A stretch of DNA of 64,000 nt from an uncultured Cryomorphaceae bacterium (GTDB lineage: Bacteria; Bacteroidota; Bacteroidia; Flavobacteriales_D; SKUL01): the NCBI GenBank assembly GCA_964487545.1, contig CAZARI010000007.1, forward strand, positions 19,634 through 83,633, read 5' to 3'. Under the pieces are notes generated by a model. The model made no database searches. It had not been told where the DNA came from and saw nothing but the letters and a program-made list of their open reading frames with translations. A program made the translations under genes and the position numbers. Of the stretch, positions 4,005-28,830 are shown in pieces. Every line of letters begins with the position of its first letter. Position 1 is the first letter of the stretch.

Positions 4005-5713
4005 TCCGCCAGCCAGCGCTCCACCTCATGGAGTTGTAGCGCCGGAATTTCCAATTTATTCTTTTTGCGGTAGCCGTTCATTTTTTGATGAATGGCTGTT
4101 GACTTGGTGCTTTTTAGCTTTTCTACCGAATCGAAACCGGCCGCTTCCAGGTGAGGAATCCACTGCTCATCAATGCCCAACATTTTAAAGTCATTAGACG
4201 CATCTGCGCGCACAAACTTTTCGGGACGCATTTGGGGAAAAAACAGCACTTCCTGAATGGAGGTTTGTCCGGTCATCATCATCACGAGCCGGTCCATACC
4301 AATTCCCATTCCGGCTGTTGGGGGCATACCATACTCCAGTGCACGCAAAAAGTCGTGATCGATAAACATGGCTTCGTCGTCGCCGCGTTCCTGTAATTTT
4401 AACTGTGTCTCCAGTCGCTCATGTTGATCAATGGGGTCGTTTAACTCGGAATAGGCGTTGGCGATTTCTGTTTTATTAACAATGAGCTCAAAGCGCTCAG
4501 TGAGTTCGGGATTGGTGCGGTGGCGTTTGCACAGTGGCGACATCTCAATCGGATAATCGGTAATAAACGTGGGCTGAATAAGCTTCGGTTCGCAATACTC
4601 ACCAAATATTTCATCAATCATCTTTCCCTTGCCCATGGAGTCATCCACTTCGATATTCAGTTTTTTGCACACCGAGCGGATTTCCACTTCGTTCATTCCG
4701 CTGATATCGACACCCGCATATTCTTTAATGGCCTGGAGCATTGGCAGACGACGAAACGGAGGGTTAAAATCAATTTCGGTATTTCCGATTTTAACCTTGG
4801 TCGTGCCGTGTACACCCTGCACCACATGTTCGATCATTTTTTCGGTAAAATCCATCATCCAGTTGTAGTCTTTATAGGCTACATAAATCTCCATGATGGT
4901 AAATTCTGGGTTGTGCGTTCGGTCCATTCCCTCGTTGCGGAAGTTTCGCGAAAACTCATACACACCGTCATATCCTCCAACAATCAGTCTTTTTAAGTAA
5001 AGCTCGTTGGCAATCCGCAAGTAGAGCGGAATATCGAGTGCGTTGTGATGGGTAACAAAAGGACGCGCCTGTGCCCCGCCAGGAATGGGTTGCAACACCG
5101 GCGTTTCTACCTCAACATATCCGGCATCGTCAAAATAGTTGCGCATCAGTGAAAAAACCTTTGAGCGTGTTTGGAAAATTTTTCGAACCTGAGGATTGAC
5201 AATCAAATCAACATAGCGCTGGCGGTATCGCATTTCAGGATCGGTAAAGGCATCGTGTATATTTCCTTCGGCATCGCTCTTCACTACTGGCAGGGGCTTT
5301 AAGGCCTTGCTGATGAGCCTCAATTGCTCAACATGCACAGTGGTTTCGCCCACCTGCGTTTTAAACAAATAACCTTCGATGGCCACAAAGTCTCCGTAGT
5401 CGAGAAGTTTCTTGAACACTTCGTTATAACCAGATTTATCTTCTTCAGGACACAGGTCATCGCGCGTAATGTAAATCTGGATTTCGCCTGTGCTGTCGCG
5501 GAGCTGCGCAAAAGAAGCTTTACCCATAATGCGACGGCTCATCAGTCGACCGGCCATTTTCACTTTTTTTCCCTCTTCGTAATTCGCTTTGCAATCGGAA
5601 GAGTACGAGTCAACTTCAACCAGCTCGGCCGGGTAGGCATCAATTCCACGTGCTCTTAACTCGGCGAGGGCATCCCGGCGAAATCTTTCTTGTTCTGATA
5701 ATTGTCGGGTCAT
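4001..5713 (-). CDS. lysS: Lysine--tRNA ligase (class II) with a C-terminal DUF4332-like extension
   Basis: OB-fold (GRLMSRRIMGKASF), motif 2 FRNEGMDRTHNPEF, motif 3 GMPPTAGMGIGMDRL. Likely start MTRQLSEQ at 5713; the longer upstream extension in the track is not LysS-like. Confidence 0.96.
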   Translation of the reverse strand: MTRQLSEQERFRRDALAELRARGIDAYPAELVEVDSYSSDCKANYEEGKKVKMAGRLMSRRIMGKASFAQLRDSTGEIQIYITRDDLCPEEDKSGYNEVFKKLLDYGDFVAIEGYLFKTQVGETTVHVEQLRLISKALKPLPVVKSDAEGNIHDAFTDPEMRYRQRYVDLIVNPQVRKIFQTRSKVFSLMRNYFDDAGYVEVETPVLQPIPGGAQARPFVTHHNALDIPLYLRIANELYLKRLIVGGYDGVYEFSRNFRNEGMDRTHNPEFTIMEIYVAYKDYNWMMDFTEKMIEHVVQGVHGTTKVKIGNTEIDFNPPFRRLPMLQAIKEYAGVDISGMNEVEIRSVCKKLNIEVDDSMGKGKMIDEIFGEYCEPKLIQPTFITDYPIEMSPLCKRHRTNPELTERFELIVNKTEIANAYSELNDPIDQHERLETQLKLQERGDDEAMFIDHDFLRALEYGMPPTAGMGIGMDRLVMMMTGQTSIQEVLFFPQMRPEKFVRADASNDFKMLGIDEQWIPHLEAAGFDSVEKLKSTKSTAIHQKMNGYRKKNKLEIPALQLHEVERWLAD

Positions 5714-5809
5714 TATACTGTAAATTTGCTGCAAAGATAGGAGTTGCACCCGATCGTGCTTAAGCTTGAGCTGCTTAATTTTGTAAATTAGTCCACTTAA
5801 AAAAACGCT

Positions 5810-6799
5810 ATGTTCAAAGAAATGGAAAAACTTATCTCCGGATTTCCGGAGGACATCAAACAAAGTATAACGGAACACCGCAATTTGGGAAAACCCAACC
5901 TTAAACCCTTTAATAAAATCCTCATCACCGGATTGGGTGGCTCGGGTATCGGCGGGTCAATGGTTGCCGAAGCACTGGTGTCAACTGCAAAAATGCCGAT
6001 TGTCGTCAACAAAGACTATTCGGTTCCAGCTTGGGTTGATGAGCAAACGCTGGTTATCGCTAGTTCGTATTCTGGAAATACCGAAGAAACCATTTCGGCA
6101 GCTACGCAGGCCAAAAAGCAGGGAGCACAATTGGCGGCAATCACCTCGGGTGGCCAATTACTGAAAATGGCTGAAGCGGATTCCTTTCCCGTTGTTCATC
6201 TACCCGAAGGTTATCCGCCAAGGGCGGCATTTGGTCACAGTTCGGTGGCACTGTTTGCGTTTCTTGGCGCTTGTGAGGTTGCCCCGTGGAATGCCAATGA
6301 GTTTTTAAAAATGGCCGATCACCTAACCGACAAGCAAGATGATTGCCGCCGCATTGGAAAAGAAATTGCAAAGAAAATTGATGGCCGCATTCCGGTTTTG
6401 TATGCCGCCGAAGGGTTGGGGGCTGTTGCGGTAAGATGGCGCCAACAAATCAACGAAAACGGCAAAAGCCTGTGTTGGCACCACATCGTTCCGGAAATGA
6501 ACCACAACGAATTGGTGGGCTGGGCTGGTGGCGACAACCGATTGGCGGTAATCATGCTCCGCAGCAGTGATGACCACCCGCGCAGTGCACTTCGGATGGA
6601 CCTAAACCGCGACCTGATTTCAGAAAAAACCAATGTAGTAGAAGAAGTTCAGGCCGTTGGCAGCAACCAACTTGAGCGCATGTATTATTTAATTGCTGTG
6701 GGTGACTGGATGTCGCTTTACATTTCTGAAAACCGTGGAGTTGATCCGGTTGAAGTAGATGTCATTTCCCACTTAAAAAGTGAATTGGCCAAGCATTGA
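5810..6799 (+). CDS. Bifunctional phosphoglucose/phosphomannose isomerase (SIS fold)
   Basis: GLGGSGIGG, SSYSGNTEET, RWRQQINENGK and PEMNHNE motifs of the PGI/PMI family. Confidence 0.88.
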   Translation: MFKEMEKLISGFPEDIKQSITEHRNLGKPNLKPFNKILITGLGGSGIGGSMVAEALVSTAKMPIVVNKDYSVPAWVDEQTLVIASSYSGNTEETISAATQAKKQGAQLAAITSGGQLLKMAEADSFPVVHLPEGYPPRAAFGHSSVALFAFLGACEVAPWNANEFLKMADHLTDKQDDCRRIGKEIAKKIDGRIPVLYAAEGLGAVAVRWRQQINENGKSLCWHHIVPEMNHNELVGWAGGDNRLAVIMLRSSDDHPRSALRMDLNRDLISEKTNVVEEVQAVGSNQLERMYYLIAVGDWMSLYISENRGVDPVEVDVISHLKSELAKH

Positions 6800-7506
6800 A
6801 ACCACGCGTCATATTTGAAGATCTCGGCGAAATCGACTATAAAGCAGCATGGGATTATCAGGAGGAGATTTTTAAGCGAACTGTCGATCAAAAGATCTAC
6901 AACAGAACGAATCCCACGGCTGCCGTCGGAACAAAAAGCCACCTTATTTTCTGTGAGCACCCACACGTGTACACGTTGGGGAAAAGTGGAAAAATGCAGC
7001 ATTTGCTGTTGAGCGAGGAAGAACTTAAAACCCACGGCGCAAGCTACTATCCGATTAACCGTGGTGGAGACATCACGTATCACGGGCCGGGTCAAATTGT
7101 GGGCTATCCCATTCTGGATCTCGATCTGTTTTTTACCGACATGCACCGCTATTTGCGCTCGTTGGAAGAAGCGGTAATCCGAACACTGAGTGATTATGGC
7201 ATTTCAGCCTACCGGCTCGAAGGTTATACTGGCGTATGGCTTGACCCCGACAATCCCATTCGCGCGAGAAAAATCTGCGCGATGGGAGTAAAATGCAGTC
7301 GCTGGGTTACCATGCACGGTTTTGCGTTTAATGTCAACACCAACCTCAGTTACTTCGGGCATATTATTCCGTGTGGCATTGATGACAAAGCGGTGACGAG
7401 CATGGAAAAAGAGCTCGATGAGAAACAAGATATCGCTGCGGTGAAAAAAGTGTTGATGAATCATCTTTCCGATATCTTTGGTTGGGAGTGGGAATCTGAA
7501 CCTTAA
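6796..7506 (+). CDS. lipB: Lipoyl(octanoyl) transferase
   Basis: EHPHVYTLGK, NRGGDITYHGPGQ, KICAMG, HGFAFNV, IIPCGI. The TTG start overlaps the upstream stop. Confidence 0.95.
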   Translation: MKPRVIFEDLGEIDYKAAWDYQEEIFKRTVDQKIYNRTNPTAAVGTKSHLIFCEHPHVYTLGKSGKMQHLLLSEEELKTHGASYYPINRGGDITYHGPGQIVGYPILDLDLFFTDMHRYLRSLEEAVIRTLSDYGISAYRLEGYTGVWLDPDNPIRARKICAMGVKCSRWVTMHGFAFNVNTNLSYFGHIIPCGIDDKAVTSMEKELDEKQDIAAVKKVLMNHLSDIFGWEWESEP

Positions 7507-7513
7507 AACGGCT

Positions 7514-8662
7514 ATGGTGAAAAAATTGCTCATTGTATTGTTGGTCATCATTGGCTTGGGAGTAACCGCTCTATATCTATCCGGAAACCAGCACATCATT
7601 CAGGCGGTGAAAAACACCTACCTCGTTGGACAAAGCGGACCTTCGATTGACGATTTCAATCTTTTTTCTCACCGGCGGATTGCATCGGCAGAGCACACAA
7701 AGACCCTACCGATGCACAGCGAAAAAAAGCAACTGTCAAAACAAGCGCTTCGGTGGCTCGATTCCACACAAACAGCAACGTTTCTGGTTGTTTACCGCGA
7801 TTCTATTCTGGCCGAACATTATTTTCAGGATTACGTTCCGGCCTTTTTGCCCAACACCTTTTCGGTGGCCAAATCGATGGTGAGTATGTGCATTGGGGTG
7901 TTGTTGCGCGAGGGGAAAATCAATGGACTAGATGAGCCGGCATCTACATACATTGCTGAGCTGGCAGAAAAAGGATACGATAAGATAACCATTCGGCACC
8001 TGCTTCAGATGAGCTCTGGAATGGGATTTGACGAAGACTACAAAAACCCGTTTGGCTATCAGGCCAAGGTGTATTACGGCGATCAACTCAGGGCAAATAC
8101 TTTGGCCTTTGACGCAATAGACGAGCCAGGAGAAAAATGGTTCTACGCCGGGGGAAACACAGTGCTGCTGGCCTTGATTGTAGAAGCCGCAAGCGGTCAA
8201 AAACTGGCACACTACTTTGCAGAAAAAATATGGCAGCCCATCGGAGCGGAGGCTGATGCGTGGTGGACGATTGAGGACAACGGATTGGAGCGTTCGTCGT
8301 GCTGCTTTTACGCCATCACCCGCGATCTTGCGCGGCTGGGTATGCTTTATCAAAATGGTGGTAAATGGAACGGTCGCGATATCGTTTCCGAACAGTTTGT
8401 GCAGGAATCGATAACACCGGTAGCCATCCCCGACCGTTATGGAGAAACCGCGTTTCAATATGGCTACCAGTGGTGGTTGGGACAATTCAACGGTCACCAG
8501 TTTTATCAAGCGCAGGGCATGTTGGGGCAGTATATCATCGTGGTTCCCGAATTGGAATTGGTTATTGTGCGCACCGGACACCACCGCAGCATGGAGAAAC
8601 AAAATGGCTTGCCCACGGATTGTTATCAGTACATAGCCATTGCAAATAATTTATTGTCATGA
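7514..8662 (+). CDS. Serine hydrolase, beta-lactamase class C-like family
   Basis: N-terminal membrane anchor, SxxK motif (FSVAKS), LLQMSSG, ARLG and GMLGQ motifs. Confidence 0.85.
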   Translation: MVKKLLIVLLVIIGLGVTALYLSGNQHIIQAVKNTYLVGQSGPSIDDFNLFSHRRIASAEHTKTLPMHSEKKQLSKQALRWLDSTQTATFLVVYRDSILAEHYFQDYVPAFLPNTFSVAKSMVSMCIGVLLREGKINGLDEPASTYIAELAEKGYDKITIRHLLQMSSGMGFDEDYKNPFGYQAKVYYGDQLRANTLAFDAIDEPGEKWFYAGGNTVLLALIVEAASGQKLAHYFAEKIWQPIGAEADAWWTIEDNGLERSSCCFYAITRDLARLGMLYQNGGKWNGRDIVSEQFVQESITPVAIPDRYGETAFQYGYQWWLGQFNGHQFYQAQGMLGQYIIVVPELELVIVRTGHHRSMEKQNGLPTDCYQYIAIANNLLS

Positions 8663-9063
8663 TGAGCGACATCACGCCGCCCGAGGTGAGCGACATTGCC
8701 ATGGCCATTATTCCGGAAGTTACCAGTGAAAATGAAACGGAGTGGCACAGCTATCTAATCAACATGAAGCCGGTGGCCATTGAAGGCGTATTGGTCAGTT
8801 CGAGTGGATATGGATTGGTAGAAAAAGAAAAAGTAAAAACCTCGCAGTTGAGGTATTTTTTGGATGTTGTAGAAGCAGAAAGCTTTCGGAAAGTAGAACT
8901 CATTCCCGACGAGTTGCACGGCCTCACCAACCAATATTGGGTGAGCTTTTTTCTTGACGGGGTGATGTTCGATAAAAAATACCTCTTTGTACCTGACAGT
9001 ATCAAAGAAGAAAACTTAACGCAGGTGCCATTGATCAACCAAAAGGGGGTTTTGATTATTTAA
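8659..9063 (+). CDS. Conserved Bacteroidota hypothetical protein
   Basis: Operonic 134-aa ORF overlapping the upstream stop; NQYWVSFF...DKKYLF resembles a family common in this phylum. Confidence 0.7.
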   Translation: MMSDITPPEVSDIAMAIIPEVTSENETEWHSYLINMKPVAIEGVLVSSSGYGLVEKEKVKTSQLRYFLDVVEAESFRKVELIPDELHGLTNQYWVSFFLDGVMFDKKYLFVPDSIKEENLTQVPLINQKGVLII

Positions 9064-9108
9064 TTGAAATCGACATCTTTAACTCTTCAGACAACCAACT
9101 GCTAACCT

Positions 9109-9822
9109 ATGCTCTACCAAATCTCATCCGACAACATTCTCTTCATCGATATTGAAACGGTGCCGGTTCACTATCGGTTCGAAGAGTTGAATCCGGAAAT
9201 GCAACAGCTCTGGGATGAAAAAACCCGTTTTTTTCAGCAACGTGAAGAAACCGATGCTGCCGGCGTTTATCAACGATCGGGGGTGTATGCCGAATTTGCC
9301 AAAGTGATTTGCATTTCGCTCGGATATGTTCACCACACCAGTCACCGTGTGCTTCGAATCACCACCTTTTCATCTGATAACGAACAGGAACTACTCGAAT
9401 CATTTTGCAGCCTCATCAACAGTCGTTTCTCGTCTAATTATTATTTGTGCGGACACAACATCAAAGAATTTGACATTCCGTTTTTGTGCCGGCGAATGCT
9501 CATCAACGGAATCAAACTGCCCAACATGTTGAACCTTGCTGGCAAAAAACCGTGGGACATCAAGCACTTAGACACCATGGAACTCTGGAAATTTGGCGAT
9601 TATAAGCACTACACTTCGCTAAACCTGCTCGCACATGTCTTTGGCATTCCTTCGCCAAAAGACGATATCAGCGGTGCCGATGTTGCACGGGTATATTACG
9701 AAGATCAAGATCTCGAAAAAATAGTGCGTTATTGCGAAAAAGATGTCGTAGCCGTTGCCCAACTCCTTTTCAGAATGAAGGGCGAACCGCTAATTGATGA
9801 TAAAAACATCGTTGTTGTTTGA
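9109..9822 (+). CDS. 3'-5' exonuclease, PolB proofreading-like (DEDD)
   Basis: ExoI DIET, ExoII GHNIKEFDIPFL, ExoIII YCEKDV. Confidence 0.88.
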   Translation: MLYQISSDNILFIDIETVPVHYRFEELNPEMQQLWDEKTRFFQQREETDAAGVYQRSGVYAEFAKVICISLGYVHHTSHRVLRITTFSSDNEQELLESFCSLINSRFSSNYYLCGHNIKEFDIPFLCRRMLINGIKLPNMLNLAGKKPWDIKHLDTMELWKFGDYKHYTSLNLLAHVFGIPSPKDDISGADVARVYYEDQDLEKIVRYCEKDVVAVAQLLFRMKGEPLIDDKNIVVV

Positions 9823-9868
9823 CGGCTTGCACCGCTTTTCTAACTTTAGCCACTTTCTTGTTTTCACC

Positions 9869-10405
9869 ATGATTCTACGCCCGGCTTTCTGTATCATTTC
9901 CCTTTTACTGATGGTTTTCTTATCGGGTTGTGGAACAGACAAACTCCCAAGTCCTTCTCAACCTGAACTGCTGACCGCAAAAATATTTGGCGACAACGGT
10001 CATTTTCGCAGCAATAAAATCGGTAATTCGCTGGAGGAAGTTGTAGAACACGACCGCGATTTTCTTTTTAAAAGAAGGAGTGAAGAACTGGGTTATTCGA
10101 TACCGCTCGCTGCAAACGACAGTGCCCATTACGACGTTTCGTATTATTTTAAGCGAAATAGACTGGTGGAAATTCAAGTGGATGTTTTGCTGGGCACCGA
10201 AAAGAAAACAGAAAAACTCTTGGGCGCCTTTGTGGGTCATCTTCGCGAAAAATATGGCGATCCATCGGAAAAAACAGGCTATGCGTATTGGGAAATCACC
10301 AATCAACAACAGCGTCTGGAAATCACTCTTCGCGATGTAAGCCGGGAGCACAACCGGCCATTTTTGTCATTAAACTTTGTTGAACCCGACAGATTTAACC
10401 CGTAA
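9869..10405 (+). CDS. Hypothetical lipoprotein
   Basis: From MILRPAF: hydrophobic signal ending in lipobox LSGC; its stop overlaps the next start. Confidence 0.7.
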   Translation: MILRPAFCIISLLLMVFLSGCGTDKLPSPSQPELLTAKIFGDNGHFRSNKIGNSLEEVVEHDRDFLFKRRSEELGYSIPLAANDSAHYDVSYYFKRNRLVEIQVDVLLGTEKKTEKLLGAFVGHLREKYGDPSEKTGYAYWEITNQQQRLEITLRDVSREHNRPFLSLNFVEPDRFNP

Positions 10406-12177
10406 TGTCAGAAAACAAACAGCTACCCTTGCTCCACATCAAGGATCTACAGGTAACCTTTCGCACAGAAGAAGCCGAAGTGGTGGCTGTGGATGGCATC
10501 AATCTGACGCTTTTTCCGGGTGAAACCGTGGGCGTGGTGGGAGAATCGGGTTCGGGCAAAAGCGTAACGAGCCTGGCAGCCATGCGGCTCATTCCCGATC
10601 CTCCGGGAAAAATCACATCAGGTGCTATCCTGTATTCGGGCCGAGGCGAAACCGTAGATCTGCTATCCCTTTCGGAAAACGAAATGCGAAGTTATCGCGG
10701 CAATGATATCGCAATGATTTTTCAAGAACCGATGACGTCGTTGAATCCAGTGATGAAATGCGGCCAGCAAGTAAGCGAAGCCATTGTGCTTCATCAGAAA
10801 GTTTCCAAAAAAGAAGCGCGACAAAAAACAATTGAGCTGTTTAAGGAAGTGCTGCTGCCGCGCCCCGAAGCCATGTACGACGCCTACCCGCACCAACTAT
10901 CGGGCGGACAAAAACAGCGGGTGATGATTGCCATGGCACTGTCGTGTCAGCCCTCGGTGCTCATTGCCGATGAACCAACCACTGCACTTGATGTAACCGT
11001 GCAAAAAACCATTCTGGAACTGCTTAACGAGCTGCAGACCAAGCGAAATATGTCAGTGATTTTCATCACCCACGATTTGGGCGTAGTGGCCGAAATTGCC
11101 GACCGCGTGGTGGTGATGTATCGCGGAAACGTGGTGGAAGAAGGCAACGTGCAACAACTGTTCGAAAACCCACAACACCCTTACACAAAAGGATTGCTGG
11201 CTTGTCGTCCGCCGCTCGACAAACGCCTTAAAAAACTGCCGGTAATTGCCGATTTTCTCGATCGCCAGGAACCTACTGACAACGAACCTACGGTTAAAGC
11301 TGTGCAACACGACCTGGAATACACTTCCGAAGAAATCGCACAACACCGTAAAAAACTCTACGAACAGGAACCACTGCTGAGCGTGCGCAATCTGCAAAAA
11401 TGGTTTCCGGTAAAAAAAGGCCTGTTCAACCGCACTGTGGATCACATCAAGGCCGTGGACGATGTTTCCTTTGACGTTTTTCCCGGAGAAACCTTGGGAC
11501 TCGTGGGCGAATCAGGCTGTGGCAAAACCACCCTCGGCCGCACAATTTTAAAACTCACCAAACCCACTTCGGGCGAAATTTGGTACCGAAATCGCAACAT
11601 CACCGACTTTACGGCTGGTGAGATGCGCCCCATGCGGAAACACCTGCAAATCATTTTTCAGGACCCGTATTCATCACTCAATCCGCGGCTCACCGTGGGC
11701 GATGCCCTGATGGAACCAATGAAAGTTCACGGCATTCTCGACAGTTATCGGCAGCGAAAAGATAAGGTGATGGAGTTGTTAGAAAAAGTAAACCTGCACC
11801 CCGATCATTTCAGAAGATACCCGCACGAATTTTCGGGTGGCCAGCGCCAGCGGATTGTCATTGCCCGCACGCTCACACTTAATCCGGAGTTTATTATTTG
11901 TGACGAATCGGTGTCGGCGCTCGATGTTTCGGTGCAGGCTCAGGTGCTCAACCTACTCAACGACCTGAAAAAGGAATTCAATTTCACCTACATCTTTATT
12001 TCTCACGATTTGTCGGTGGTGAAATTTATGAGCGATCGGATGGTGGTGATGAACGGTGGTAAGATTGAGGAAATGGGCATTGCAGATGAGATTTATCGTC
12101 ACCCCAAATCGCCCTACACCCAGCGGCTAATTGACGCTATTCCCGGAACATCTCTCACAAAATCAGGCACCTTTTAG
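10405..12177 (+). CDS. ABC transporter ATP-binding protein with two fused OppD/OppF-type ATPase domains
   Basis: Two Walker A motifs ([16 protein letters not shown]), two signatures ([16 protein letters not shown]), HPYTKGLL and SPYTQRLI. Confidence 0.93.
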
Positions 12178-22284: not shown

Positions 22285-24657
22285 TCAATCTGCCAGTTTA
22301 ATGGCTTTTTTCACGAGTAGCTCTCCGTTTACGTATAGGGCGTAATGATACAACCCCGCTGGTAGGCCGGATGCATTCCACTCATAACGGTAGGTACCCA
22401 CTGCTTGTTCGGCTTCTACGATGGTTGTTATGGGTTTTCCCGTTTTATCAAATACTTTCAATACCACTTTGCCTTGTTGCTCAAGGGTATAACTAATGGT
22501 GGTTTGGCTCCTAAAGGGGTTTGGCGTGTTTTGATGTAACTCATTCACTGCCTTTTCTATTACACCTGGAGTTTCTTCATTAGGATGGAAGCTTGGTGCC
22601 GTTCTGTCGGTATTACAACAATGGTTGATTTGTTGTTGAAGTTCATTCAATTGCTCCATGATCTGCGCCATTGCTTCGTTTTGTGATTCAATGATGGATT
22701 GTTGCTCTTTGACTGCTGAAATGAGATAGGGAATTAACCCTGTGTAATTGACCGACTGAAATTCAATTGCGGCAGAAATTTCATTTCCCAAAGTGTCGAA
22801 CATTGCCGGTGCGGTGGTCTGTTTTACCAATTGAGGCAATACCTCTGCCAGTTCTTGAGCAATAACACCCTGTTGTTCTCCCTCGGGCAAGTTCAATTGA
22901 CTATATTCTTCTGTTAAAAAAGAATAGCTTTTGGGTTCAATCTGCTGTATTACTTCTAATGCCCCTTCTATGGGTTCAATGTTTTGTTTTAGTGTCTCGT
23001 CAGAACTCGTCCAAACTCCTGCTGTGCAATGAGTAGCTCCAACAAAGAAACCTGCCCAGTTTTCTACCGAAGCGCCACCCGCTGAACCATGAACACCGTA
23101 TGCGTGGGTTCCACCTCCGGCTCTGCCAAGCACAGCGAAAACTTGTTGGTTCGGACTGATATTGCTATTTCCTGCCAAAGCAAAAAATGCCCCCCCTATA
23201 GAATGTTCAACAAAAGAGTTAGGTTGAGAAATTGCCCACCCTTGCACGCCAAAATTTTGGAGTGTTGTGCCTGATTCTGCAGCATAGGCTCTAAAATCTC
23301 CGGCATAATTTATTCGAGCATTATAAACCTCTCCTCTTACTCCGCGGGCCTCGGGAAAATTAGGGTATCGTTTAACTGCTGAATATGTGCCCGTGACTAC
23401 ACCAAAAACATTATCACTTGGCGATTCCGTCCATATAACCCGCGCTCCAAATTCTTTTGGATTTCCTTGATTATCTCCATGAAATACATCAAGTTTGGCC
23501 TGAGGGGTTGCTACGCCAATTCCAACATGTCCACCTGGGTAGCAATCATTTCCAACGCCAGTAACAACATCATCAATACCCGGCACATTCTCGATTACTT
23601 CCCAATCGCAATCTGAAGTTCCATTTTCAATTTCAGACCATTCTCCTTGTCCATTTAAAAACATTGTTTCGCTATTAGGAAAGTCCAACCTACCCAGAAA
23701 ATTATCTGCTTCTCCCGAATTAACCTCATCAACTTGGTATCCGATGACTAATGTTTTAGGTGGTTCGTCGGGCAGGTTTCGAATTCGGGTGTAACCTTTG
23801 CCCACATCCAATGCAGTACCCACCATGGGGTCGGTTGCGTTGGAGGGATCATCAAAAAAACCGACGGCAAGCGCACGTAGAGATCCATTTGTCCGAGGCA
23901 CTATGTGCAGGTTGCCATGATTTGACACTTGGAAATCGGCATTGGTTCCGGTATTAACGTTTGTACTGCGTATTCGTGTAATTCGAAACTGCGGGTCATT
24001 TCTTTGCTTGATAACATCTAAGGTGCGGTGAGGTTGAAAGGTGTTATTCCAGTAACTGCCAAAACCTACGTGGCCATTACCGATCATACGTCCTAATTCT
24101 ACGCCGTCGTAGTCAGAAGCGTCAAAAACATCAGAGCTAATGGTGGTGGTGCCGTTGGCAACTCCTGCCGAGAATATAAACCGTAATACATCGGGGCCGC
24201 TCTCCGGTGATTTATTATCGCCCCATGCTATTACGGCATCGGTCAGGCTTTCATTATTGGCCTTCGGGCCAACGTACATAAAATCCCGATTATGGGTAAA
24301 AGTAATTCCAGCCTTCATCCAATCTCGGTACCCCCAGGGCTGTGGCCCCCAAGTGTTGCCTTCGCCGTAAAGGTGAAGCAATGAAAAGGGCTTGTGGTTA
24401 AACGCGGTAGGATCACTACTCAACAGCAAAAAACCGTCGTGATTGTAAGTATAGCCGTCTACGGTATTGATGCCGTTTTGCATCAGTTGCATATACGTGG
24501 TGTTGTTGGTGCGGAACTCGAGGTTCTGGCCGGCAGCATTGTAGCCTATAAATTTGCCTGTTCCCGGATTATTATTACCGCTTGTTGACTGTCCTGCCAA
24601 ATGTTGGGTAAAAGCTAATAATAATATGGCCAAACCAATGTGGGTGAAGTTTTTCAT
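22285..24657 (-). CDS. T9SS-secreted tail-fibre-like protein with peptidase S74 intramolecular chaperone
   Basis: Sec signal peptide, Gly-rich beta repeats (GVRGEV, GVQGWA, GVHGSA), S74 start WTSSDETLKQNI, GVIAQE, VNYTGLIPYLISAVKEQQ, a coiled coil, then T9SS CTD QNTPNPF...LPAGLYHYAL...KKAIK. Confidence 0.85.
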   Translation of the reverse strand: MKNFTHIGLAILLLAFTQHLAGQSTSGNNNPGTGKFIGYNAAGQNLEFRTNNTTYMQLMQNGINTVDGYTYNHDGFLLLSSDPTAFNHKPFSLLHLYGEGNTWGPQPWGYRDWMKAGITFTHNRDFMYVGPKANNESLTDAVIAWGDNKSPESGPDVLRFIFSAGVANGTTTISSDVFDASDYDGVELGRMIGNGHVGFGSYWNNTFQPHRTLDVIKQRNDPQFRITRIRSTNVNTGTNADFQVSNHGNLHIVPRTNGSLRALAVGFFDDPSNATDPMVGTALDVGKGYTRIRNLPDEPPKTLVIGYQVDEVNSGEADNFLGRLDFPNSETMFLNGQGEWSEIENGTSDCDWEVIENVPGIDDVVTGVGNDCYPGGHVGIGVATPQAKLDVFHGDNQGNPKEFGARVIWTESPSDNVFGVVTGTYSAVKRYPNFPEARGVRGEVYNARINYAGDFRAYAAESGTTLQNFGVQGWAISQPNSFVEHSIGGAFFALAGNSNISPNQQVFAVLGRAGGGTHAYGVHGSAGGASVENWAGFFVGATHCTAGVWTSSDETLKQNIEPIEGALEVIQQIEPKSYSFLTEEYSQLNLPEGEQQGVIAQELAEVLPQLVKQTTAPAMFDTLGNEISAAIEFQSVNYTGLIPYLISAVKEQQSIIESQNEAMAQIMEQLNELQQQINHCCNTDRTAPSFHPNEETPGVIEKAVNELHQNTPNPFRSQTTISYTLEQQGKVVLKVFDKTGKPITTIVEAEQAVGTYRYEWNASGLPAGLYHYALYVNGELLVKKAIKLAD

Positions 24658-25652
24658 TGCCTGTAGATTTTATGATTAGTGATTGTTGAATTTGCTTTAA
24701 TTCGAAGCACGTAAACCCCGCTTGCAAGGTAGCCTGTATCGATGCGTAATGAAGGCGAATCAACATTGGTCACCTCTGTCACAAGGCGGCCTGTCATATC
24801 ATAGATCGCAGCCGATTCTATCGGAATGCTTTTATTTTTAAGGTCTATATTCACGTAATCTTTAGCAGGATTGGGATATACGGCATACCCCTTTTCCATA
24901 CCTGACGGTGAAGCACTCAGCAGGTAATCGCAGCCTGAGGGAGTTGGAGATATACATACATTTTCGATGTAGTAATATCCCCAACAGGACACTTCGGATT
25001 CATTTAAAATGAGAATGTCTGTGTTGTCATCATCAAAGAAGTTTCCGATGGCGAGCCAGTTGTATTCCTGGTCGGCTGTTACCCAACCCTCAATTTTTGT
25101 CCAATAGGTGGTGTCGGACAGAATTTCCGAATAGTCGATATGCGCGAAATTATCCGGCATCAGCCAGTCGCTTGAAGGTTGATAATGGTATTCAGGGTCT
25201 TTAAAAAAACGCAAGCCTATGTGATTTGTGGCGCACCAAGCCCATGCCTCCATTCCACCATCGTATAACGATGCATGAAAAAAGACATAATAGCTCTGGC
25301 CGATGGTAAGCGGCTCTGATAATTCAATGGCTATATACTCACGAGCCTGAGGTGTAAAATCCTCATACGTAGCTAATCCAGCATAGGCTGCTCCCGATAT
25401 TGGAAATTGATATCCAAATGCATTTGAAGGAACTCCTGCAAATCCTTCTATATCATCGCTGCAAGGATGAAAATAATCAGGTGACCACCCCCAGGAATGC
25501 CAGCCCACAACATTAACCCCGTCTCCATAAATGCCTGCGGTGCTGAAAGGGCATTCTGTGTACTCTTCAAAGCTTGGATTGGGCACAAGGTTTTGCGAAA
25601 ATCCCTGAAACATCGAAATAAACATTATAGCAATAAGGGCAAACGCTTTCAT
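24654..25652 (-). CDS. T9SS type A sorting domain protein (NLVPNPSFE family), function unknown
   Basis: Start MKAFALIAI at 25652 with signal peptide, QNLVPNPSFEEYTECP, YYYIENVC, CTD VYPNPA...LASGVYVL...KIYRQ. Its TGA overlaps the next ATG (ATGA). Confidence 0.85.
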   Translation of the reverse strand: MKAFALIAIMFISMFQGFSQNLVPNPSFEEYTECPFSTAGIYGDGVNVVGWHSWGWSPDYFHPCSDDIEGFAGVPSNAFGYQFPISGAAYAGLATYEDFTPQAREYIAIELSEPLTIGQSYYVFFHASLYDGGMEAWAWCATNHIGLRFFKDPEYHYQPSSDWLMPDNFAHIDYSEILSDTTYWTKIEGWVTADQEYNWLAIGNFFDDDNTDILILNESEVSCWGYYYIENVCISPTPSGCDYLLSASPSGMEKGYAVYPNPAKDYVNIDLKNKSIPIESAAIYDMTGRLVTEVTNVDSPSLRIDTGYLASGVYVLRIKANSTITNHKIYRQ

Positions 25653-25862
25653 AATTGATTGAAAGTTAGGATAAAAAATAATATGCCCCAAATATGGGAC
25701 TAATGTTTTTTCCCACAGCATCACTTTAGCTCTGTGAATCTGCATGCTGAACAAAGGCTCATCAAAACAATAGGAAAGCGCATTAGAGAAGAGCGTAAAC
25801 GGCAGGGAATTTCTCAAAACCAGCTTGCCTTTGAGGCAAAAATGCCCAGAGTGCAGATTGGA

Positions 25863-25870
25863 CGTATAGA
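25863..25870 (+). repeat. 8-bp target site duplication CGTATAGA (second copy 28187-28194)
   Basis: Identical octamers directly flank both IS ends; 8 bp is the typical IS66 TSD length. Confidence 0.93.
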
Positions 25871-25887
25871 GTAAGCCCCCGACTAAC
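25871..25887 (+). repeat. IS66 terminal inverted repeat GTAAGCCCCCGACTAAC
   Basis: Pairs with 28170-28186 (reverse complement GTATCCCCCCGACTAAC). The tnpC stop codon lies inside this TIR. Confidence 0.92.
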
Positions 25888-27451
25888 TACGCCCTGATTT
25901 TTCCCCTTGATATGCGTATGTGTCTTTTGATGGGAGCTGAAGGTTTTGCGGGAAGAGCTCATAGAGTTTGTTGACTTTGTGGTCTGCGATACGACCGAGT
26001 ACTTCTGTGAGCCAGGCCATAGGCTCTACGCCGTTTAGTTTGCATGTGCCTGTAAAGGTGTAGAACATGGCAGATCGACTGGCACCTTGATGCGAACTGG
26101 CAAAGAGGTAGTTCTTTCTTCCGAGTGCGTTTAGCCTGATGGTGTTTTCTACCAGGTTGTTGTCGATGAGCAGTTCGCCGTTATAGAGGTAATTTTGAAG
26201 GCTGTCCCAAAGATTTATTGCATAAGTAAACGCTTTGCCAATAGAGCTTTTGGGTAGTACGTGTTTGTTTTCAGCGGATATCCACTTGCCAAGCTCATTG
26301 AGGATAGGTAGAGATTTTTCAAGCCGAAGCTCCTTTCGCTGTTCTGGGCTAAGCAGCTTGACTTCACGCTCGACAGCATAGATCTGCTGTATGCGCACAA
26401 GAGCATATTGGGCACGGGCCTTGTCTTGGTCTAAGGCCTGCTCAAAATACCTGCGCGCATGCGCCCAGCATCCAAGGTGCACGATTTCTTCCTTTTGGGA
26501 ATATTCATTGTATACTCTGTATCCATCGGTTTGCAAGTAGCCCTGGTAATGTTGAAGTATCTTTTGGGGAGCGGGTTTACCGCGCCCCCGGTGATAGTCG
26601 AACACTACCATGCGTTTGGGGGGCGAGTGGTACACCCAGTAGTAACCCATGTGGCTCTTGCCTTTTTTGGTTTTGTCAAGCACCCTGGTAGGTGTCTCGT
26701 CTACCTGAAGGTAACCGTCAAGTTTTACCACATCAACCATGGCATCGTAGAGTGGTTCGAGTAATGTGCCCAGCTGCGCTACCCATCCATCTATGGTAGA
26801 TGGGGCAATGTGTATTGCTGCCCGCTTGAAGATTTGTTGCTGGCGGTACAGCGGCAGGTGGTCTACGTATTTGTTGATGAGTATGGAGCTGAGCAAGGTG
26901 TTTCCCGCAAGGCATTTTTCGATAGGCCGTGATGGCATATCGCCGATGAGCACCCCCTGACCACCGGGCAGGGCGTATTTGTTGCGTACCAGTACCAGCT
27001 TAAAAAACCGGGCAGGGGCCAACTCAAGTATTTCGGTGCGTTCTTCGCCTATTTTTACCATGCCTTCTACAGGAGTTGTTGGGTCTATCACCACTTCATG
27101 TACAGGCATATCTGCGGGCAGAGGATTGCGTCCTTTGTGATTTTCGTTCTTTTTGCGGGTATAGGTAATGGTTTCTTTAACGGGCTTATCGCCGTTGGTG
27201 CTTTGGCTTTTGTTAGTTAGTTCTTCAAAGGGCAAGTTGAGCTGATTGGCGATAACGATGTTTTCGGCCATGAAGCGCTCGCTTTTTGTACCAAAGTGCA
27301 TGCGGCGAAGGCGGTTTATCAGATTCTCCATATAGGTAATCATCGCTTCTGAACGCTCGTCTTTTGCTTGTGCCTTTTCAATGGCAGCATTTTGTTGTTT
27401 TACCAACGCTAAGAGTTGCTCTTTTGATAGGTTTTCAAGCTGCACTTCCAT
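25883..27451 (-). CDS. tnpC: IS66 DDE transposase TnpC
   Basis: Coiled-coil N-terminus, HFGTKSE, KYVDHLPLYRQ, QVDETP, LQTDGY, GCWAHARR, IDNNLVENTIR, GRKNYLF. Confidence 0.95.
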   Translation of the reverse strand: MEVQLENLSKEQLLALVKQQNAAIEKAQAKDERSEAMITYMENLINRLRRMHFGTKSERFMAENIVIANQLNLPFEELTNKSQSTNGDKPVKETITYTRKKNENHKGRNPLPADMPVHEVVIDPTTPVEGMVKIGEERTEILELAPARFFKLVLVRNKYALPGGQGVLIGDMPSRPIEKCLAGNTLLSSILINKYVDHLPLYRQQQIFKRAAIHIAPSTIDGWVAQLGTLLEPLYDAMVDVVKLDGYLQVDETPTRVLDKTKKGKSHMGYYWVYHSPPKRMVVFDYHRGRGKPAPQKILQHYQGYLQTDGYRVYNEYSQKEEIVHLGCWAHARRYFEQALDQDKARAQYALVRIQQIYAVEREVKLLSPEQRKELRLEKSLPILNELGKWISAENKHVLPKSSIGKAFTYAINLWDSLQNYLYNGELLIDNNLVENTIRLNALGRKNYLFASSHQGASRSAMFYTFTGTCKLNGVEPMAWLTEVLGRIADHKVNKLYELFPQNLQLPSKDTYAYQGEKSGRS

Positions 27452-27512
27452 GCTGTGAAGATACGCCAAAAGTTAGGTGTGCAAGATGTTTTAAGCATCA
27501 GTAATCAACACT

Positions 27513-27869
27513 TTATCTGGATAAAAAGCGCTTTCTTTTCTTGGTTTTTTCAAAATCAATACCTCGTAAAATCATGAATAATTCTTCTTTGGTGAGTTCA
27601 CTATTTGGAGCGTTAAGTCGGGCTGTTGGTCGTTTGAAAGTTCCGAGCTCCAAGCGTTTGTGAAAAAGCGCCAGTCCGTCAATATTCCAATGAAGCACTT
27701 TAATGCGAGTGCGCTGCCTGTTCATAAAAACAAACAGATAACCCAGGCGTGGATCCAGCTCCATGTGTTCCAAAACCAATCCGTAAAGTCCATCAAATCC
27801 CTTGCGCATGTCGGTGGGTTGAGCGTATAAAAACACTTTGGTGGCTTCCTCCAGACCAAACAAACTCAT
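27513..27869 (-). CDS. tnpB: IS66 accessory protein TnpB
   Basis: PTDMRKGFDGL, LFVFMNR, KVLHW..DG..LF.KRLE.GTF. Confidence 0.95.
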   Translation of the reverse strand: MSLFGLEEATKVFLYAQPTDMRKGFDGLYGLVLEHMELDPRLGYLFVFMNRQRTRIKVLHWNIDGLALFHKRLELGTFKRPTARLNAPNSELTKEELFMILRGIDFEKTKKRKRFLSR

Positions 27870-28114
27870 GCAAACACCAAAATTTTAACGCCCGATGGGG
27901 CTTCAATCTCCAATACTTTACCTAGCTTCACTTCGGAAAACCCAACCTCCTTAAAGCCTGTTTCGCCTGCTACAGATTGAGCGGCTTTCCATTTTGCAAT
28001 CCAGTAATTGAATTTTGCTTCGCTGTATTGCTTGCCATTTAAAAAATCAGATTTCCTAACCCCAGAGGCCAACCAGTCCTGAACCTCAGAGAACATTTCT
28101 TCTTGTAAACTCAT
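27866..28114 (-). CDS. tnpA: IS66 accessory protein TnpA
   Basis: 82-aa ORF at the first position in the IS, W..SG...DF...FNYW pattern, ATGA overlap with tnpB. Confidence 0.8.
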   Translation of the reverse strand: MSLQEEMFSEVQDWLASGVRKSDFLNGKQYSEAKFNYWIAKWKAAQSVAGETGFKEVGFSEVKLGKVLEIEAPSGVKILVFA

Positions 28115-28169
28115 ATCACGCAGTTTTGTGCGCGAAATTCATGAGGTTTTTAGGAACTGACAAGATGGG

Positions 28170-28186
28170 GTTAGTCGGGGGGATAC
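28170..28186 (-). repeat. IS66 terminal inverted repeat (tnpA side)
   Basis: GTTAGTCGGGGGGATAC, a 15/17 inverted match to 25871-25887. Confidence 0.92.
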
Positions 28187-28321
28187 CGTATAGAACGTGG
28201 AGAGATCAATACTACCATAGGTGCTCTTATTGTAATATGTCGTGTGCTTGATATTCATCCGAAAGAGCTTTTAGATCTTACAATTTGAAGATTCCTGATT
28301 TTAAAATTCCTGTTTTAAGTC

Positions 28322-28438
28322 TTAATTTTTTTTCATCCAGTCGCGGTAACCATTCTGCTGGGGGTTGCTTCCACCGTTATCTCCGTTCAGGTGCAGCAGC
28401 GAAAAAGGCGATTGTACCACCTGATTGATGCCAATAGG
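28322..28438 (-). pseudogene. Second, shorter paralog relic in a different frame (relic 2)
   Basis: Manual translation gives PIGINQVVQSPFSLLHLNGDNGGSNPQQNGYRDWMKKN*, repeating the PFSLLHL...GYRDWMK motif. It overlaps the tail of relic 1 out of frame. Confidence 0.72.
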
Positions 28439-28830
28439 GCGAACCCTGAGATGCCATAATTTCAAGTGTGTTTTGGGGTTGGGTTCCGGCGGTAAAAAAA
28501 TCGCCTATTCCCATCCTGCCGTTGTCTTGTCCGTCCACCCACATTCTGGCAAGTTCAAAACCATCGTTCGTAGAAGCCAAACCATTTCCGGGCGCTGCGG
28601 TAAATACAAACCGCAACAGATCGCCATTCTTCTTTGGTCCGACATACATGAAATCCTTATTGTGTGTAAAGGTTATTCCATATCGCATCCAATCGCGATA
28701 ACCATTATGTAGGGTTATTCCTGACTTATCCCCATTTAAATGCATTAACGAAAATTGTCTTACCATTGGTCCAAAACACCCAATGTAAATGATAAAACTT
28801 GTGCATAAAAAACCAGTTGGATGGCCAATT
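28377..28830 (-). pseudogene. Truncated paralog of the fibre protein N-terminus (relic 1)
   Basis: FSLMHL...GYRDWMRYGITFTHNKDFMYVGPK...LLRFVF aligns with FSLLHL...GYRDWMKAGITFTHNRDFMYVGPK...VLRFIF in 22285..24657. It has no signal peptide, an apparent internal deletion, and no S74 or CTD. Confidence 0.8.

Follow-up and report, generated by a model that had tools for sequence, protein, structure and literature searches.

An IS66 insertion splits a small XRE regulator gene divergent from a type IX secretion partner-fibre operon in a soil Bacteroidota genome

We analysed a 64,000-nt stretch of a soil Bacteroidota genome assembled from a soil metagenome (contig CAZARI010000007.1; hereafter, the window), in which an insertion sequence (IS) of the IS66 family interrupts a short gene for an XRE-type helix-turn-helix (HTH) protein. 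The gene lies divergent from a two-gene operon encoding a partner protein and a fibre protein, both with C-terminal domains of the type IX secretion system (T9SS). The evidence supports the conclusion that the insertion inactivated a genuine XRE gene. A regulatory link between the XRE protein and the partner-fibre operon is well supported by comparison of related loci, with repression the more likely sign of the regulation and derepression of the operon by the insertion probable. Taken as a whole, the account in which the regulator is null and repression of the operon has been lost through the insertion is the one we favour, if by a modest degree of confidence; that the protein binds DNA, where the promoter lies, which sign the regulation has and how expression is affected are all inferred from sequence. 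As an event, the knockout of a local regulator by an IS is of an ordinary kind, and the operator code of the XRE family described below is a more useful by-product than the knockout itself.

An IS66 element interrupts an otherwise intact XRE gene

The 5′ part of the XRE gene (25734..25870, plus strand) consists of codons 1–45 and two bases of codon 46 and begins with a GTG start that is kept in orthologues, and the 3′ part (28195..28288, plus strand) encodes residues 47–76, which include helices 4 and 5, followed by a TGA stop. When the flanks are fused with a single copy of the target-site duplication kept between them, a 76-codon open frame is restored, which closes at 28288. The protein that it encodes matches HTH_3 over the full profile (positions 1–55, E 3e-13) and retains all invariant and near-invariant positions in an alignment of 28 relatives from which the window protein itself was left out. 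In the AlphaFold model of an ungapped 76-aa orthologue (pLDDT 91.7), which we used in place of the window protein, helices span residues 3–23, 28–35, 39–46, 54–63, and 68–72, so that both the profile match and the five-helix fold place the protein in the XRE/HTH_3 class. The insertion point lies after E46, the final residue of the recognition helix; because helix 3 of the model comprises residues 39–46, the cut falls at the C-terminal end of this helix. The first bases of the IS complete codon 46 and add a stop (GAG TAA, with TAA at 25872-25874), and therefore the product is exactly residues 1–46, with nothing added.

The IS is 2316 bp long (25871..28186, minus strand) and is the sole copy in the window. 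Its terminal inverted repeats, GTAAGCCCCCGACTAAC at the tnpC end (25871..25887, plus strand) and GTATCCCCCCGACTAAC at the tnpA end (28170..28186, minus strand), agree at 15 of 17 positions, and the end motif, allowing up to three mismatches, has only two matches in the 64 kb (0.05 expected by chance). The two copies of the 8-bp target-site duplication, CGTATAGA, are identical (25863..25870 on the left and 28187..28194 on the right). All three IS genes are open and lie on the minus strand, namely, a small first open reading frame (ORF) of 82 aa in the tnpA position (orf1, 27866..28114), tnpB (IS66 Orf2-like, 118 aa, 27513..27869), which overlaps orf1 by 4 nt, and tnpC, the DDE transposase gene (25883..27469; 528 aa from a TTG or 522 aa from an ATG at 27451). 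The tnpC product matches DDE_Tnp_IS66 (PF03050, E 9e-94, profile positions 1–283 of 284) and additionally contains the IS66 C-terminal element and LZ domain, and the tnpB product matches TnpB_IS66 (PF05717, E 4e-31). The 82-aa first ORF had no Pfam match, with zf-IS66 remaining below the threshold. In an exact-protein look-up, the 522-aa form of the tnpC product was found only on the source contig, and no protein identical to the 528-aa form, to the tnpB product or to the fibre was found.

We re-examined the source run as independent Logan contigs. One contig spans the left junction (24495-27558, depth 10.7) and another the right junction (28157-28695, depth 12.6), both without differences from the window, so the insertion is no assembly artefact. 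The right boundary at 28186 was independently confirmed by sibling copies of the element in three runs, which match the window to 28186 or 28187 and then diverge. In the source run, the last 200 bp of the IS (27987-28186) have a depth of 27 versus ~12 in the flank; this roughly twofold excess implies at least one further element with the same end in that sample, and the presence of several diverged siblings ending at the same base implies that this IS66 lineage is active in that community.

The insertion looks recent, given that neither half of the XRE gene has decayed, all conserved XRE positions are kept, and the IS still has intact genes and a perfect duplication. The first-pass annotation of the window, made from the sequence alone, had proposed a 76-codon HTH gene split by a recently inserted IS66 at the end of its recognition helix, with 15/17 inverted repeats and a perfect 8-bp duplication, and all of these proposals hold. 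The 81-nt gap that it had placed between the XRE gene and the divergent operon was likewise recovered, with the GTG at 25734 and the partner ATG at 25652.

The XRE gene is kept beside partner-fibre operons in related loci

The partner gene (24654..25652, minus strand) encodes a 332-aa protein that carries a signal peptide, the NLVPNPSFE motif in its N-terminal part and a C-terminal sorting domain of the T9SS. The fibre gene (22285..24657, minus strand), the start of which overlaps the partner stop by 4 nt, encodes a 790-aa protein with Peptidase_S74 and T9SS C-terminal domains. We found no paper on S74 together with T9SS.

The comparison with related genomes that the first-pass annotation had proposed recovered intact XRE orthologues of 76–77 aa, with 70–75% full-length identity, in the same divergent position in four metagenome contigs. 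The XRE gene is divergent from a partner-family or T9SS gene in all four of these loci with at least 70% identity and in three more distant ones, and the S74 fibre gene is also present in five of the seven, the exceptions being L084, where it is absent, and L098, where the contig ends too early to show it. Together with the window, these loci (L001, L002, L003, L084, L005, L007, and L098) form the set of eight syntenic loci referred to below. In L001, L002, and L003, the XRE gene is divergent from a partner gene with the signal peptide, NLVPNPSFE motif and T9SS domain, followed by the Peptidase_S74/T9SS fibre gene, and a paralogue of the partner is convergent on the other side of the XRE gene. 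L084 (75% identity) has the partner without the fibre, L005 (52%) keeps both genes and the L098 contig (50%) ends within the partner gene. In L007, the XRE gene is divergent from a gene for a CHU_C protein with no match to the partner, the ORF end of which is ~530 nt from the XRE start, and an S74/T9SS fibre gene follows. No IS was found in any orthologous locus examined, and no close XRE orthologue was found among the GTDB species genomes (best 63% identity).

Partner-fibre operons at ~50% identity also occur without any XRE gene (L166 and L167), and ~155 other members of the XRE family are found in other contexts, so the XRE gene is an accessory on a subset of partner-fibre operons. L167, a metagenome-assembled genome from NCBI, carries two tandem partner-fibre operons (5001-10981) with neither an XRE gene nor the palindrome described below, the first encoding proteins of 326 aa and 292 aa and a 448-aa S74 protein and the second a 326-aa protein and a 786-aa S74 protein; the tandem pair shows that the partner-fibre cassette duplicates and also exists unregulated.

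Several further observations concern the fibre genes and their surroundings. Downstream of the split gene in the window (28322-28766, minus strand) are two out-of-frame relics of the fibre N-terminal module, with 38% identity to fibre residues 89–222, and they occupy the place where orthologous loci carry the intact partner paralogue convergent on the XRE gene. A contig from a compost run (X2), corresponding to 24501-24723 and 28332-28408 of the window, contains a fibre start that runs on into sequence nearer to this downstream relic than to the window's own fibre, which hints at mosaic N-terminal modules. L001 and L002 have an identical 77-aa XRE protein and a near-identical spacer, with different outer flanks and fibres of 763 and 894 aa that share only their C-terminal halves (80% identity), a pattern that suggests exchange of the N-terminal parts of the fibres. 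L003 also contains four tandem 81-aa GIY-YIG genes with a regular 338-nt spacing (9786-11045).

A candidate operator in the divergent spacer and a putative recognition code

With the partner start set at the signal-peptide ATG, the spacer between the two divergent genes (25653..25733) is 81 nt long, as it is in L001–L003 and L084; L005 and L098 have longer spacers, of 105 and 118 nt, respectively. We identified in it a palindrome, GCCCCAAATATGGGAC (25685..25700; family form GnCnCATATATGnGnC), the centre of which is ~40 nt from each divergent start codon. In every one of the eight syntenic loci, its core, [A/T]ATATG, is found at a distance of exactly 43 nt upstream of the XRE start, with CATATATG beginning at −45. 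In six of the eight the core sits within GnCnCATATATGnGnC; L005 departs from this form at one arm base and L098 keeps the core only. Between independent lineages, pairwise identity is 63% inside the motif versus 48% outside. In the window, this is the only such site (0.02 expected by chance), and no second palindrome site was found at up to three mismatches. The variable positions of the palindrome lose complementarity among orthologues, a pattern that fits a protein-binding site and not an RNA hairpin, and the call of a terminator or hairpin at this place was rejected for the same reason. In the window itself, the core (25688-25695) reads CAAATATG (CATATTTG on the operon strand) versus the usual CATATATG, a change through which a −33 element with the consensus TTTG arises and the palindrome becomes weaker. 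Either drift following the loss of the XRE protein or a promoter-up change could account for it.

The XRE proteins belong to a Bacteroidota family with members of ~75 aa. We fetched 161 loci of this family, and exact CATATATG is found ~46 nt upstream of the XRE gene in 56 of them. The upstream gene is divergent in 41/45 family loci, often at 80–82 nt. Across ~50 members, the bases on either side of the core covary with the residue that stands immediately ahead of the invariant Q(I/V)GRIERG (chi-square 132, a value uncorrected for phylogeny, such that the nominal p is overstated). A serine at this position goes with a flanking G in 62/68 half-sites (ACGCATATATGCGT), asparagine with A in 15/16 (ACACATATATGTGT), arginine with G[T/A] in 6/6 (AGGTCATATATGACCT) and valine, the residue of the window's subfamily, with T or C in 7/8 (GTCyCATATATGrGAC). 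Such covariation is the signature expected of direct readout, and what looks like a simple recognition code emerges, with S, N, R or V ahead of QIGRIERG predicting the flanking base. The covariation of a helix-3 residue with the flank of the core, together with the fixed position of the palindrome, is strong, if indirect, evidence that the palindrome is the cognate operator of the split XRE protein. We found no paper on the CATATATG operator.

The divergent neighbours across the family are diverse, with OGG-like genes in 9 of 33 loci, followed by terminase, Tae4, AHH, RHS, and other genes. The recurrent pair of an XRE gene and an OGG-like gene (PF21790, ~216–229 aa) is present in L093, L124, L126, L129, L143, L145, L153, and L159, among others.

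Promoter candidates and proposed mechanism

A sigma-70 promoter scan was set aside as not valid for Bacteroidota promoters. Flavobacterial sigma-A promoters carry TAnnTTTG, or the variant TAnnTTGY, at −12 to −5 (PMC9723704). On the operon strand of every syntenic locus, the operator core (mostly TATG, and TTTG in the window) is followed 20–21 nt on by a box of the form TAnnTT(T/G)(G/C), in agreement with this Bacteroidota consensus. In the window, the candidate −7 box facing the partner gene is TAACTTTC (25661..25668, minus strand), 20 nt downstream of the TTTG in the operator core; the corresponding boxes are TATCTTGC in L001 and L003, TAGATTGC in L084, TAATTTTG in L005, and TAGTTTTG in L098. 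Family-wide, 18/52 loci have such a box, with at most one mismatch, at a spacing of 20–21 nt, and almost none have it at other spacings. An alternative candidate −7 box, TATTTTTT (25673..25680, minus strand), abuts the operator, and the matching AAAATA block is kept family-wide.

In the mechanism that we propose, a classical three-ORF IS66 transposed into the ~75-aa single-domain, Cro/C-protein-like XRE gene with an 8-bp duplication, and the cut after helix 3 would leave a 46-residue fragment without helices 4 and 5, rendering the regulator effectively null. A dimer of the intact XRE protein is predicted to occupy the palindrome (25685-25700), which is central in the spacer. The core of the palindrome would provide the operon-facing promoter with its −33-like element (TTTG/TATG), and the palindrome also abuts the second candidate −7 box. 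Bound there, the protein would most probably occlude RNA polymerase and repress both the partner-fibre operon and its own gene, and the insertion would leave the operon constitutively derepressed in this population. Repression is favoured because the operator lies within the operon-facing core promoter under either −7 box. The link between the regulator and the operon, which the first-pass annotation had put forward, gains from the kept synteny, the kept 81-nt spacer, and the overlap of the cognate palindrome with the operon-facing candidate promoter boxes.

Alternative explanations

Several findings weigh against loss of repression as the outcome. The same arrangement of operator and spacer occurs beside many unrelated divergent genes, and the palindrome could thus serve mainly for autoregulation; XRE-free partner-fibre operons exist, as described above for L166 and L167. 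No promoter of the XRE gene itself could be assigned in the spacer analysis. If the first candidate −7 box is the one in use, the partner mRNA would have almost no leader, and leaderless mRNAs are uncommon (5.5% in F. psychrophilum). The sole RNA run with a near-identical partner gene yielded two 151-nt contigs, which are uninformative on regulation. Finally, among proteins of solved structure the XRE protein comes closest to the controller (C) proteins of restriction-modification (R-M) systems (C.AhdI, E 1.6e-9, with C.BclI and C.Esp1396I), which activate as well as repress, and hence the sign of the regulation could be the opposite of the one that we favour.

R-M controller proteins switch from activation to repression as occupancy goes from low to high. 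The XRE protein might accordingly be an activator or dual regulator, in which case the insertion would lower or abolish expression of the partner-fibre operon. The C proteins are of the same size and likewise consist of a single domain, and the palindrome upstream of the regulator's own gene is C-box-like; however, where C-boxes are paired, one palindrome was found here at up to three mismatches, its core falls on the −33-like element, with a centre near −36, a position that favours occlusion, and no R-M genes are nearby. On this evidence, we regard an activator or dual regulator as unlikely. We assign a similarly low probability to the possibility that the XRE protein regulates only itself, with the operon promoter independent and the insertion a case of neutral decay in an eroding locus. 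The family-wide position of the operator at about −46 whatever the neighbour, the XRE-free operons and the frameshifted fibre relics at 28322-28766, just downstream, all fit this possibility, but 81 nt is too short for two independent promoters clear of a central 16–18-bp operator, the upstream gene is divergent in most family loci at a recurrent spacing, and the −7-like box at a fixed 20–21 nt from the core faces the neighbour gene. Any change in operon expression might instead come from transcription reading out of the IS, independently of the loss of the XRE protein. The tnpC gene is oriented towards the operon and stops 12 nt short of the IS terminus, and no terminator-like site was found from the tnpC stop (25883) onwards to the start of the partner gene. 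Nevertheless, there is no outward promoter-like box near the IS end, a weak hairpin with a T-run (25824-25840) and the palindrome stand in the path, and IS66 transposase genes are weakly expressed, all of which make read-out improbable.

The first-pass annotation had further suggested that precise excision could make the insertion an ON/OFF switch, a form of phase variation of fibre display in the population. The perfect 8-bp duplication would permit exact restoration of the gene, and IS elements of other families provide precedents (IS492 at epsG, IS256 at ica, and those in Xanthomonas wxoA). The search for the empty site gave this suggestion no support: neither the empty-site junction GGACGTATAGAACGTGGAG (25870 joined to 28195) nor a loose end continuing from one flank into the other was found in the contigs of the source run and nine other runs, although contigs drop rare variants. 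Coexistence of filled and empty alleles was likewise not seen, with the filled allele alone present in the source-run contigs, which hide rare variants. The left-junction contig is unbranched and has a depth like that of the flank (10.7 vs 12.6), the allele is present in one sample only, and no orthologous locus carries an IS. Among public runs, the XRE flanks were found only in the source run, and contigs from compost relatives, with a partner ~96% identical, end at 25580 and do not reach the spacer. Most IS elements undergo precise excision only rarely and through the host, and, to our knowledge, frequent precise excision is not known for IS66. We therefore consider a reversible switch the least probable of the readings. 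The broader picture, in which a family of ~75-aa controller-like XRE proteins with the CATATATG-core operator and recognition code has one member toggled by an active IS66, yielding heritable and occasionally reversible switching of T9SS fibres, appears very improbable as well, if marginally less so.

Implications

T9SS cargo pairs that include a phage-type S74 fibre have yet to be characterised, down to the timing of their production. The locus described here links a subset of these S74-fibre pairs with a small regulator of their own, for which a candidate operator is defined, and the insertion supplies a natural null allele of that regulator. Furthermore, the covariation at the operator provides a directly testable specificity rule for a widespread, unstudied XRE family.

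Comparison with known systems

Classical members of the IS66 family have a three-ORF layout and inverted repeats starting with GTAAGC. The window element is assigned to this family on its DDE transposase, tnpB and small ORF ahead of tnpC, GTAA-type ends, one of which is GTAT, and 8-bp duplication. Like classical three-ORF elements, for example ISPsko1 or, if its passenger gene is left aside, ISPa75, it has the order tnpA-tnpB-tnpC with a 4-nt overlap between tnpA and tnpB, the DDE_Tnp_IS66 and TnpB_IS66 domains and the 8-bp duplication, and its repeat starts with GTAAGC, compared with GTAAGCG in ISPsko1. It differs in being short (2316 bp), in having GTAT instead of GTAA at one end, in the lack of a Pfam match for its first ORF and in its Bacteroidota host.

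Phase variation by IS elements (IS492 in epsG, IS256 in icaC, and Xanthomonas wxoA) resembles the window in that an IS with a clean duplication occupies a gene that controls a surface structure, but neither an empty allele nor a mixed population was seen in the contigs here. Another parallel is the knockout of local repressors, given that IS insertions in mgrB, acrR or marR derepress surface or resistance genes. In those cases as in the window, a mobile element disrupts a small regulator and the adjacent target is likely to become constitutive, whereas the target in the window is an uncharacterised pair of T9SS partner and S74 fibre.

Among regulators, the R-M C proteins (C.AhdI, 1Y7Y; C.BclI; C.Esp1396I) are the closest solved sequences to the window XRE protein. 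Both have a single five-helix XRE domain of 75–82 aa and a palindrome upstream of their own gene, implying autoregulation. Unlike the C proteins, the window XRE protein (as well as those of L001–L003, L084, and L005) has T9SS cargo genes and not R-M genes as neighbours, one palindrome with a CATATATG core was found at up to three mismatches whereas the C proteins have paired C-boxes, and the gene it is predicted to regulate is divergent, whereas that of the C proteins is co-directional.

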